This document shows, piece by piece, positions 2,499 to 5,508 of a stretch of DNA of 64,000 nt. The notes below the pieces were generated by a model. That model saw only the letters and a program-made list of their open reading frames with translations. It had not been told where the DNA came from and searched no databases. Origin of the DNA: Capsulimonadales bacterium (GTDB lineage: Bacteria; Armatimonadota; Armatimonadia; Armatimonadales; Armatimonadaceae); assembly GCA_033762295.1 (NCBI GenBank), contig JANRLW010000090.1, positions 1 to 64,000 of the forward strand, read 5' to 3'. Within the stretch, counting starts at the first letter, position 1; every line of letters starts with the position of its first letter. A program made the position numbers and the translations under genes.

Positions 2499-3725
2499 CT
2501 AAAGCAGCGCCATGACCGCCGGGTTGACCCAGCTCGGATCGTGGAATCGACGGCCCCATTCAAGCGGCGTAACGTTGCGGTAGAAATGCTCCGTCTCATC
2601 CTCCACGAAGCGCAGACGTTTCCTCAACGAGGCGAGGATCGAACGATCCGCGCCATGGTCGAGCAGGAGACGGGCGAAGGCGTCGTCCCGTCGACAGTTC
2701 GTTCGGTAGGACTGCGAGACGACACAGCCGAACAAAGCGGTATGGCCACCGAAGCCGTCCGCATCGATCTCCGCCCGGGCGTCGACCGCCGCCCCCCGGT
2801 TTAGCAGCCAGTGCGCCATCTCATACTCATCGAAATCGACCGCCAGATGCAACAGGGTCCCCCCGGCGATCGGAGTGCCGTGCAGGGCGAGGGAGTGGTC
2901 GGTATGACAGCCAAGGGACGGCGGATAGATCGCCTCATGCGGGAACGTGCGACCGAGCAGCTCCGGGTCGTTTTTCAAATGCCGTTCGAGCAGGTCGATC
3001 CGCCCCCGATGCAATGCCATGGGCGCGGTGTCCGGCAGGGCGAGACCGTGACTCGCCATCGCTTCCAGGCAATCGTGCTTTTCCGGCGGGTTCCGTGAAT
3101 AGGTTTCCAGCACCATCCCGACCGGGGCGAGAGGGTCGCCCTGATCGTCGCTGAGGTCCGCGCCGAGTTCGAGCAGAAAGCGCAATCCGACGCCGTTCAG
3201 CGCCTCACAGGGGCCCATCACCACGCCCTTTTGGATATGGGCGCCCGCCGATTGCAGGTAGCGCGCAATTTCGAGATGGCCCTTCATCGACGCGCGGTCG
3301 AAGGCGTACTGAACGTCCTGCGCACCGAGTTCGCGCAGAAGGCGCACCACCGCGAACTTTCCCGCCGTGGCGGCATGGGAGAGCGGAGGTCCCCAGTTCC
3401 CACGGACGCCGCGAGCGTCCTCGTCCCGGAGTCGCGGATGACGAAGGATCAACCGACGCACTGTCTCGACGTCCTCATTCCAAATGGCATCAATCAACTG
3501 ACAGGCGAGGGCGAGTCTTGGCCAGGAGGAAACGCCGTAACTGCGGGCGAGGGCGCGCTGTGCATCGGTAAGGCGGGCCTGATCGGGCGCGGGCGGTGCG
3601 GGGTGACTGGCTTGAAACTCGGCGAGGGCCTCGGGATCGCCGTTGCGAATCCCCTGAAGTAACTCTTTGGCCTGATGTTTCAACTGGTCCGCATTCGGGC
3701 GGACGGGTAGGTGGCGTAATGCCAT
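2499..3725 (-). CDS. Ankyrin-repeat protein with a conserved N-terminal helical domain
   Basis: PPLSHAA, TLLHLAV, GHTALF and TPLEWG repeats; N-terminal LPVRPNADQLKHQAKELL...DAQRALARSYGVSSW; AAGGAGG SD. Confidence 0.85.
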   Translation of the reverse strand: MALRHLPVRPNADQLKHQAKELLQGIRNGDPEALAEFQASHPAPPAPDQARLTDAQRALARSYGVSSWPRLALACQLIDAIWNEDVETVRRLILRHPRLRDEDARGVRGNWGPPLSHAATAGKFAVVRLLRELGAQDVQYAFDRASMKGHLEIARYLQSAGAHIQKGVVMGPCEALNGVGLRFLLELGADLSDDQGDPLAPVGMVLETYSRNPPEKHDCLEAMASHGLALPDTAPMALHRGRIDLLERHLKNDPELLGRTFPHEAIYPPSLGCHTDHSLALHGTPIAGGTLLHLAVDFDEYEMAHWLLNRGAAVDARAEIDADGFGGHTALFGCVVSQSYRTNCRRDDAFARLLLDHGADRSILASLRKRLRFVEDETEHFYRNVTPLEWGRRFHDPSWVNPAVMALL

Positions 3726-3728
3726 ATT

Positions 3729-3848
3729 CCGGAGCCTCCTTCGAGAGTCTGCCCGTTGTCCGCCGATTCGGGCGCAAAGGAGGTTCGGAAGAACCTGAGA
3801 TTGCGTGCGAACAGGGGACTCAGTCCTTTCCGCGGACGGGAGGCTTCC
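3729..3848 (-). ncRNA. Candidate structured cis-regulatory leader RNA
   Basis: At least five complementary segment pairs, including a pseudoknot and an SD-sequestering stem (see findings). Confidence 0.55.
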
Positions 3849-4005
3849 TGCAAAGCCAACTCCTCACTTACCACAGGCCCGTGAAAGCGGCAAGCCGTTT
3901 CTACCGATTTTCGCAAACCGAATACCGGCAGGGAAACGGGCAGGAGAGTTCGACGCCGTCCCCGAACGATGAAACGGACGCTACCGAAGAAGGAGTTAAC
4001 GAAAC

Positions 4006-5508
4006 ATGAGGTTATTACCCCCGAAAAATCATCCCCATTCCCGCTCCCACCATCATAGCCATAAGGCGGGCCATGCGGCCCATACGCAGGATGCCGTGGA
4101 GAAGGGGTTGCCCGGCATGATGCGCCGACCGATCAAGGTGACGATGATGGGCGCGGGCAGCGGCTTCACTCCGCGCCTGACCTCCGATATTATTTCCATT
4201 CCGGGTAACCGGGGCGGGACGATCGCTCTGGTCGATATCGACGAGAATCGACTGGAGACGATGCACCGCCTGATCGGCAAGGTCATCGCGCAGAAGGGAC
4301 TGGAGGACAAATGGTCGGTGATCGCGTCGACCGACCGTACGGAAGTGATGGGCGGGAGCGACTACCTGACCAACTGTATCGAGGTGTCGGGCCTGGGTTG
4401 CGTTCGTTTTGACAACGACATCCCGGCGAAATACGGCGTCGATCAGTGTATCGGCGATACGATCGGGCCGGGCGGTCTGTTCAAGTCGCTGCGGACCATC
4501 CCCGTCTGGATCGATGTCCTGAAGGACGCCGAACGTCTCGCCCCGAACGCGCTCGTACTCAACTACACCAACCCGATGAGCATGATGTGCCTGGCGGCGT
4601 TCCGGGCGACCTCGCTGCCGATCGTCGGACTCTGCCATTCGGTGCAGGGAACGAGCCATCTGCTCGCCGGCCGAGCGGGCGTTCCCTATGACGAAATGAT
4701 CTGGGAGTGCGCGGGAATCAACCATCTCGCCTGGTTTACGAAGCTCGAACACGACGGCAAGGACCTGTATCCGCTCCTCAAGGAAAAGGCGGCGGCGGAC
4801 CTGGAAAAGGCGTTCGCGGAAGGGCCGCCGTCCGATCCGGAGCGCAAGAACCAGCATAGCTGGGATCTGCCGGAACACCATCGCGATATCGTCCGCAAGG
4901 ACATGATGCTGCATTTCGGTGCGTTCATCACCGAATCGTCGGGCCATCTTTCCGAGTACCTGCCGTACTACCGTAAGCGAAACGACCTGCTGACCAAATA
5001 CGCCCGGCCGGGCTATGACGGCGGTTCGTCGTTCTACGCGGACAACTGGCCGAACTGGCGGAAGGGCGCGGACGAACATCGCGAGAAAATGGTGCGTGGC
5101 GAGGAACCGATCCGCTGGGAGCGAAGCTGGGAGTACGCATCGTGGATCATCGAGGCGCGGGAGAAGGACAAACCGTTCCGCATCCACGGCAACGTTCCCA
5201 ATACCGGCGGCCTGATTGAGAACCTGCCGCACGACGGAATCGTCGAGGTGGCGTGCATGATCGATCAGAACGGCATCAATCCGACGCGCTACGGCCGTCT
5301 GCCGGCGCAGATGGCGGGCATCTGCCAGATGAACATGGCGATGTACGAACTGGGCGCGCAGGCGGCACTGGAACGCAGTGTCGAAAAGGCGATCTACGCT
5401 CTGATGCTCGACCCGCTGACGGCGGCGGTCTGCTCGCCCGCCGAGATCAAAGCGATGTGTCTCGAAATGTTCGAAGCGGAAAAAGAGTTTCTGCCCGGCT
5501 ATAAATAG
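4006..5508 (+). CDS. melA: GH4 alpha-galactosidase / alpha-glucosidase
   Basis: GAGS NAD motif, GDTIGPGG, LNYTNPM, GLCHS, GINHLAW; AAGGAG SD. Confidence 0.9.
   Translation: MRLLPPKNHPHSRSHHHSHKAGHAAHTQDAVEKGLPGMMRRPIKVTMMGAGSGFTPRLTSDIISIPGNRGGTIALVDIDENRLETMHRLIGKVIAQKGLEDKWSVIASTDRTEVMGGSDYLTNCIEVSGLGCVRFDNDIPAKYGVDQCIGDTIGPGGLFKSLRTIPVWIDVLKDAERLAPNALVLNYTNPMSMMCLAAFRATSLPIVGLCHSVQGTSHLLAGRAGVPYDEMIWECAGINHLAWFTKLEHDGKDLYPLLKEKAAADLEKAFAEGPPSDPERKNQHSWDLPEHHRDIVRKDMMLHFGAFITESSGHLSEYLPYYRKRNDLLTKYARPGYDGGSSFYADNWPNWRKGADEHREKMVRGEEPIRWERSWEYASWIIEAREKDKPFRIHGNVPNTGGLIENLPHDGIVEVACMIDQNGINPTRYGRLPAQMAGICQMNMAMYELGAQAALERSVEKAIYALMLDPLTAAVCSPAEIKAMCLEMFEAEKEFLPGYK

Follow-up and report, generated by a model that had tools for sequence, protein, structure and literature searches.

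The window, that is, the whole stretch of 64,000 nt that was analysed, carries on its minus strand a gene for an ankyrin-repeat protein of 408 aa (2499-3725, matching Pfam Ank families), with an ATG start codon at 3723..3725. A family-4 glycosidase (glycosyl hydrolase) gene on the plus strand (4006-5508) diverges from it, and the gap of 280 nt between the two contains a leader RNA of the ankyrin gene. The leader was delimited by covariance-model matches to 3726..3860 (minus strand, approximately 135 nt, the whole predicted 5' UTR). It scored 107.9 bits with model R1, built from ten leaders, and 105.2 bits with model R2, a second model built from 100 copies, and the stretch is present as a single copy in the window's own genome. 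The glycosidase gene is unrelated to the leader; its product has a His-rich stretch at the start. The full ankyrin protein was predicted to form an ankyrin solenoid (pLDDT 95.2), and its matches were generic ankyrin or DARPin ones only.

A putative promoter was located at 3865..3893 (minus strand), with the -35 box TTGCCG (3893-3888), a 17-nt spacer, and the -10 box TAAGTG (3870-3865), which ends 7 nt before the first base of the first hairpin, P1. Across the leaders, a TANNNT box, most frequently TATACT, ended 5-9 nt before P1 in 88/98 cases, compared with 4/98 at a control offset. The box of the window ends in G and thus belongs to the 10 leaders that miss the TANNNT pattern; it is the weaker for it. 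As the box is positioned just before P1, the leader is predicted to make up the whole 5' UTR and, judging from the sequence, would begin at or next to the transcription start, which is predicted 0-3 nt before P1. The predicted promoter lies just upstream of the element and not within it; a transcription start inside the element, a possibility that had been raised beforehand, is not what the sequence predicts.

The structure was counted on 101 aligned leader copies (alignment A6) and has seven helices, for which all coordinates below refer to the minus strand. Hairpin P1 (3842..3857) has its 5' strand at 3857-3852 and its 3' strand at 3846-3842, and double changes were seen in 3/5 pairs (GGCA/UGCC, GGCG/CGCC, UGCG/CGCA). 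Inside its loop lies the 5' strand of the pseudoknot helix PK1 (CAGG, 3850-3847), which pairs with the 3' strand CCUG at 3812..3815. PK1 had double changes in 3/4 pairs, and this helix was left out of the covariance model; the variants found among the leaders were CAGG/CCUG, GAGG/CCUC, GGGG/CCCC, UGGG/CCUA, and CUGG/CCAG. A 2-bp mini-stem (3830..3840; CC 3840-3839, GG 3831-3830) follows, whose loop holds the 5' strand of the second pseudoknot helix, PK2 (GUCCGC, 3837-3832). The next hairpin, P2 (3816..3826), is formed by GGAC (3826-3823) and GUCC (3819-3816) around the loop UGA, with double changes in 4/4 pairs and 99.8% of cells paired.

After the 3' strand of PK1 and a linker comes the variable hairpin P3 (3782..3795; GGUUC 3795-3791, GAACC 3786-3782), which is shortened or absent in some paralogues and whose final two C residues overlap the anti-Shine-Dalgarno (anti-SD) strand. 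This strand, the conserved internal anti-SD CCUCCUUUG (3775..3783), is the 5' side of helix P4; the 3' side, CGAAGGAGG (3735..3743), includes the Shine-Dalgarno (SD) sequence GGAGG (3739-3735). Between them stands hairpin P5 (3751..3773; GCCCG 3773-3769, CGGGC 3755-3751), and the 3' strand of PK2 (GCGGAC, 3763-3758) is located in the P5 loop. The order of strands is therefore P1a, PK1a, P1b, mini-a, PK2a, mini-b, P2, PK1b, linker, and P3, continuing with P4a (the anti-SD), P5a, PK2b, P5b, and P4b (the SD). Because the CC/GG mini-stem encloses the PK2 5' strand, PK2 is a loop-loop kiss, and since P5 is nested inside P4, this kiss anchors the 5' domain to the very helix in which the ribosome-binding site (RBS) is concealed. 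All 37 pairs of the conserved structure can form in the window sequence, and the leader is without a terminator.

In the alignment as a whole, 35 pairs (3437 cells) were 96.5% paired, compared with 89.8% in column shuffles, and 0/500 shuffles reached the observed value; these shuffle counts overstate the significance, given that the sequences share ancestry and that the model had aligned them along the nested helices. When the partners were slid along A6, the pairing was at most 52%. Compensatory changes on both sides were recorded for 29/35 pairs among the 101 copies. The nested helices were part of the covariance model, and the alignment leans towards them. PK1 and PK2 were absent from it and could be tested independently of the alignment model: taken alone, they were 98.4% paired, 8/10 of their pairs were double-changed, and 31 double-change cells were counted where 2.9 were expected. 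The mini-stem was paired in 202/202 cells (0/500 shuffles reached this), and all three changes at its G positions were compensated (U-A). The covariation shows a conserved leader with a double-pseudoknot architecture.

For this site, an earlier note had proposed a leader with a pseudoknot and with the SD bound up in a helix, and the covariation on the 101 copies bore this out; the leader is real and wider than was noted. All six pairings that the note listed are literally present in the minus-strand RNA of the window. The pseudoknot GUCCGC/GCGGAC, here PK2, was double-changed in 5/6 pairs and 98.7% paired, the GCCCG/CGGGC stem (P5) in 3/5 pairs and 97.6%, and the AGGUUC/GAACCU hairpin (the variable P3) in 5/5 pairs and 87.5%. 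The internal CCUCCUU had been taken for a second anti-SD: it corresponds to P4, in which the internal CCUCCUUU pairs with the SD, all 6/6 counted pairs were double-changed, and 97.1% of cells were paired. Two of the listed pairings are not conserved. The 5' anti-SD AGCCUCC/GGAGGCU was 72.5% paired, compared with 71.6% in shuffles; its central U-A (or U-G) pair was present in 35/101 copies and its outer pair in 6/101, and AGCC is really the 3' strand of hairpin P1. Conservation is confined to the internal anti-SD, which leaves no support for two anti-SDs that would exclude each other. The AAAGGA/UCCUUU helix was 86.7% paired and its shuffles 86.6%, so it reflects purine/pyrimidine complementarity only; the GGAC of this region belongs to hairpin P2. 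P1, PK1, P2, and the CC/GG mini-stem were absent from the earlier description.

The data were also weighed against the view that this G+C-rich intergenic region holds complementary stretches by chance and encodes no functional RNA. The single-sequence fold of the 131-nt leader is in line with such an account: -52.1 kcal/mol compared with -44.2 ± 4.3 kcal/mol for shuffled sequences (z = -1.83), with 11/200 shuffles folding as well; for the 306-nt intergenic RNA, z was -2.94. The window sequence taken alone is unremarkable, and the evidence comes from the comparison across copies. There, conservation upstream of proteins of 55-65% identity, occurrence in six phyla, and compensation in 29/35 pairs, those of the pseudoknots included, refute chance complementarity, whose probability we put close to nil. 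That the leader is a real, structured RNA acting in cis as a regulator, and that its family is missing from Rfam, is in our judgement very probable. The thermodynamic masking of the SD was modelled as a weak effect, slightly above control: its unpaired probability was predicted as 0.19 in the native sequence and 0.25 with the upstream part shuffled, and it was lower in 68/100 comparisons.

Several further pairings were tried and rejected. A GG/CC extension of P2 had no double change and 6 broken cells, and the CC/GG mini-stem was preferred. The 5' pairing GCAGGA/UCCGC, obtained with RNAalifold from ten sequences, was superseded by P1, PK1, and PK2 from 101 sequences. For an 'SD-mimic' GGRNAGGA that would pair with the anti-SD, the complementarity was the same as in shuffles; this helix was predicted in 21/100 leaders when the SD was forced open, at a mean opening cost of 6.6 kcal/mol. 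A pairing of the P5 loop with GGUCCGU of the SD-AUG spacer was 82.8% paired and 82.7% when shuffled, with no double change. A CsrA-type site with a GGA loop in P1 was set aside because the P1 loop, in covarying with the PK1 3' strand, takes forms that lack GGA (e.g., CAGU, CUGG).

The sequence around the start codon was inspected as well. The SD-AUG spacer (last 14 nt) is fixed as GGAGGUCCGUCAUG in most Acidobacteria-type orthologues (L056-L135; 19 identical, most others close variants), and the window differs (3739-3726); the GGUCCGU of this spacer is complementary to the P5 loop, without covariation. Past the start codon, G is avoided at four-fold third positions (G3) in the first approximately 12 codons of 64 orthologues (L056-L135; 3690-3725 in the window, minus strand). 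Val8 is encoded by GTG in 0/64 orthologues, compared with 42% of the Val codons elsewhere in the same genes, and Arg9 by CGT or CGC in 53/64. The resulting Val8-Arg9 codons, GUYCGY, are complementary to the P5 loop GCGGAC; their reading as a second partner of this loop is confounded, as G3 is depleted over all of the first approximately 12 codons. By these codon counts, the beginning of the coding region, too, seems to be constrained at the RNA level.

The distribution of the leader was followed with protein and covariance-model searches. A protein search over 41 related genomes gave orthologues of the ankyrin protein at 55-65% identity, and their upstream 140 nt were conserved well above the expectation for that divergence, with compensatory changes visible. 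The earlier note had proposed to judge the element by whether the upstream sequences of homologues with the N-terminal domain are conserved and covary; both signals were strong. Model R1 gave 17 matches in 13/32 genomes of the family and 28 matches in 19/71 genomes of the order; one of the 28 (L050, 15.2 bits) was later dismissed as a false match. When 185,579 species genomes were scanned with the orthologue alignment, 482 relatives emerged, and the best 80 loci (named MAGs) were examined. In 72 of these best 80, a full-length leader (56-124 bits) ended at the gene start; one locus (L083) was cut at the 5' end, and in seven loci no leader was matched even with filters off. The leader-bearing loci were from Acidobacteriota, Gemmatimonadota, Planctomycetota, Armatimonadota, and Vulcanimicrobiota (labels from the tree), and the protein of the window grouped with Armatimonadota rows on the protein tree. 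With model R2, 33 of the 151 genomes in a sample of the window's phylum were found to carry the leader, at most four copies of it in any one genome; in a sample of 151 Actinomycetota genomes, it stood upstream of 6/9 genes encoding the N-terminal domain. The leader recurs in at least six bacterial phyla.

The mean column identity of the ankyrin orthologue across phyla is 65-71%, high for a repeat protein, with invariant blocks that include HRGRxDLL and GFGGHTxLF. The occurrence of the orthologue is patchy (4/151 sampled genomes of one phylum). High conservation combined with patchiness suggests horizontal spread and a specific function.

The first 85 codons of the ankyrin gene (3471..3725, minus strand) encode an N-terminal helical domain (N-domain), delimited by alignments A3 and A8. 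Its pattern in A8 is LPxRP..L.QAK.LL, a variable part of 0-35 residues, and L.L..AQ..LAREYGF.SW..LK; an AF2 model is a helical bundle (pLDDT 91.3). Nothing above thresholds was found for it in Pfam or NCBIfam. The best match among PDB profiles was to a protein named JUBO2 (E 0.013), and fold searches gave no clear known fold (best VIA Z 3.8, Foldseek E ≥ 3). The domain is an uncatalogued family. In a protein atlas, its fold occurs in clusters without Pfam families, with stand-alone forms of 105-177 aa, and also in clusters carrying FliG_C or DLH.

The association between the leader and this domain was examined from both sides. The N-domain was present at the start of every downstream ORF examined (8/8, 26/26, and 4/4, i.e. 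38/38 paralogues), and all 72 leader-bearing orthologues carry it. The C-terminal parts of 28 proteins were ankyrin repeats in 20, DUF1835 in two, LRR in one, and without a Pfam family in five. The leader RNA thus goes with the N-terminal domain, whether or not ankyrin repeats come after it. In the window's order, the profile of the domain had 34 matches, 28 of which had a leader and one a weak divergent copy; two were without a leader, one lay where its contig ends, and for one partial ORF no leader was matched. Among the downstream genes examined, the leader is restricted to those that encode the candidate binding domain, as expected for an autogenous leader, and no enzyme, transporter, or biosynthetic gene was found behind it. 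No conserved operon partner was found: the genes further downstream differed among 39 loci (39 ORFs: OPT transporter in five, HTH_20 in three, DUF5996 in two, GNAT in two, and others), so the gene with the leader is probably monocistronic.

The leader was compared with catalogued RNAs. A search of 3300-4400 of the window against Rfam 15 (4227 models, E ≤ 10) returned two chance-level rows only (15.8 bits for a threshold of 40, and 12.8 bits for a threshold of 55), and 15 related leader loci gave 0 matches at the gathering thresholds. The earlier note had likewise been unable to place the RNA in a characterised class, and no Rfam 15 family reached its threshold here. No RNA motif tied to ankyrin genes was found in the titles and abstracts of the openly accessible literature. 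A passage search of the main text of the paper describing 224 motifs (PMC5737381) gave none of the terms 'ankyrin', 'Acidobacteri', 'Gemmatimonad', and 'Armatimonad'; its supplement could still hold such a motif, although every Rfam model was negative. As neither Rfam nor this literature gave a match, the leader is placed as a new family within a known kind, the SD-sequestering structured leader. Its fold and its gene association are both unusual. In its route of discovery it is like the orphan structured RNA motifs of the Weinberg/Breaker type, i.e. a conserved intergenic motif with covariation and a narrow gene association; unlike those held in Rfam, it is not among the 4227 models.

Most likely, the leader is a translational operator. 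The fully folded leader would block binding of the 30S subunit, and an effector that stabilises the fold would lower translation. The effector that we prefer is the N-domain itself, whose basic face (K16, K20, R24, and R27 on helix 1, plus K/R51) may bind the leader, making leader and domain an autogenous feedback module that would be joined to ankyrin, LRR, and DUF1835 scaffolds. An SD-hiding leader with the N-domain as its preferred effector is the best explanation as a whole, and we advance it tentatively. Autoregulation by the encoded domain is itself placed slightly ahead of a small-molecule riboswitch, as a reading that is possible and short of probable.

The rpsO (S15) leader of E. coli is a pseudoknotted autogenous translational operator, and other ribosomal-protein leaders work likewise. 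The leader described here resembles them in being a structured, partly pseudoknotted 5' leader that overlaps the RBS and stands only before the gene of the would-be binder, and the proposed logic is the same. In contrast to those systems, the protein is neither ribosomal nor a known RNA binder; it is a helical domain fused to ankyrin, LRR, or DUF1835 parts, and binding is a proposal. The leader sequence is conserved across six phyla, and none of the Rfam leader families matches it.

Seven of the orthologues have no leader. At Lys20, the near-invariant Lys of QAK, these leaderless proteins have E, E, E, E, A, R, and V, whereas position 20 is K in 69/72 and R in two of the leader-bearing orthologues. 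The columns that best separate the two groups are K20, K/R51, K95, K16, R24, and K43, mostly basic residues of the N-domain; K16, K20, R24, and R27 stand at i, i+4, i+8, and i+11 on helix 1. The leader and the candidate binding surface are lost together, in that 0/7 leaderless orthologues keep K20, and the independence of these cases is weak. On a quick ML protein tree, the leaderless rows were scattered and the best tree needed six changes; L104, which is leaderless, was sister to the leader-bearing L123 (SH-aLRT 100). If well-supported branches alone are counted, no more than two independent leader losses are required, and a sign test can therefore not reach significance. A phylum sample, with the orthologue in only 4/151 genomes, did not enlarge the leaderless set. 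Genomes with a leaderless orthologue still have the leader before other N-domain genes.

The two-way link between leader and domain, together with the joint loss of the leader and the basic residues, makes the N-domain the best candidate effector. The involvement of the gene's own N-domain had been suggested in the earlier note; the support gained for it is circumstantial and consists of the RNA tracking the domain and not the ankyrin repeats, and of the leaderless orthologues being without the basic residues of the domain. A paralogue (L184) fits the same pattern, with EAAGLL and no leader. Against autoregulation, two loci keep the QAK-type Lys without a full leader. One is L180 (G070:C9, upstream of 220695), and the other is L204 (G386:C139), which has a divergent leader with an R2 match only at model positions 25-47. 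In the VIA, Foldseek, and PDB-profile searches, the N-domain gave no clear resemblance to a known RNA-binding fold, and the co-loss would be explained just as well if domain and RNA responded to one and the same anionic ligand. A clear alternative helix for an ON state was likewise not predicted. As to the sequences of these two loci, L180 has a UTR of approximately 30 nt behind a TAAACT box that still holds 'cggcggatag', and the leader of L204 looks like a reshaped 5' domain.

The shared ligand leads to a different account of the leader, a riboswitch in which the 5' double-pseudoknot domain would act as the aptamer. Its ligand would be a small molecule or an ion and might be an anionic signalling nucleotide to which the N-domain binds as well. 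The ligand would stabilise the PK2 kiss and hence P4, resulting in translational OFF, and a shared ligand would explain the joint loss of the leader and the basic residues. Its size, its two pseudoknots, and nucleotides that hardly vary over six phyla are what aptamers typically show, and covariation supports a conserved structured aptamer; the SD is built into the conserved fold, so that the expression platform would overlap the aptamer, and the leader fills the whole predicted 5' UTR. The gene context tells against it: the leader is found only before one protein-domain family, with no enzyme, transporter, or biosynthetic gene, no operon partner is conserved among the 39 loci, and the context yields no candidate ligand. 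Nor was a covarying alternative helix found across the aligned leaders that could serve as an expression platform in an ON state. We regard a riboswitch as plausible, if rather unlikely; with no matching Rfam family, it would be a new class.

In the translational OFF riboswitches SAM-II, preQ1-II, and preQ1-III, the SD forms part of a pseudoknotted aptamer. Like them, the leader has the SD within a conserved pseudoknotted fold, is without a terminator, and fills the 5' UTR. Unlike them, it is without a match in Rfam at thresholds or at E ≤ 10, is larger, with five helices, a loop-strand pseudoknot, and a loop-loop kiss, and is tied to one repeat-protein family and not to the metabolism or transport of a ligand.

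In a further account, the leader would be read by another trans factor (candidates range from a different RNA-binding protein or an sRNA to the translation machinery, as the ribosome or an initiation factor, and on to an RNase or temperature), or would be a constitutive mRNA-stability structure, and the promoter, leader, and first approximately 85 codons would be inherited and recombined as a cassette. The leader and the domain are always together while the C-terminal parts vary, and gene-leader pairs occur in tandem, both of which agree with a cassette; the G3 depletion over the first approximately 12 codons, as an RNA-level constraint into the coding region, would suit a trans factor or a cassette. 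Inheritance as a cassette does not alone explain why the basic residues of the domain are lost selectively in leaderless orthologues with the rest conserved, and for a trans factor no partner was identified. Among the functional readings, we consider this one distinctly unlikely.

To return to autoregulation by the N-domain, the leader and the first approximately 85 codons might, with due reserve, be regarded as a self-contained RNA-protein module that has spread over at least six phyla and become attached to ankyrin, LRR, DUF1835, and other scaffolds, in which the N-domain would be a new RNA-binding domain and the leader its operator. Such a module would feed back on the translation of bacterial 'eukaryote-like' repeat proteins. 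The leader would add to the catalogues a widespread, elaborate RNA class that is missing from them, from soil and sediment phyla (Acidobacteriota, Gemmatimonadota, Planctomycetota, Armatimonadota, Actinomycetota, and others). It would also provide the first regulatory handle on a large and very conserved bacterial ankyrin-type protein family, and an uncatalogued protein domain would be defined through its tie to an RNA. An RNA of 135 nt and a peptide of 85 residues would thus turn out to be either the operator and its hitherto unrecognised RNA-binding domain, or else the RNA alone would represent a riboswitch of a new class.

Tandem pairs of a leader and an N-domain gene were observed at G102:C7:194-320 and 1617-1744, and at G126:C3:143147-143273 and 144570-144697. 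The genes in these tandems encode approximately 420 aa each, and two of them carry DUF1835. In L121 (1066-1203, 2496-2673), a second ankyrin gene, preceded by a leader of its own, comes after the orthologue.
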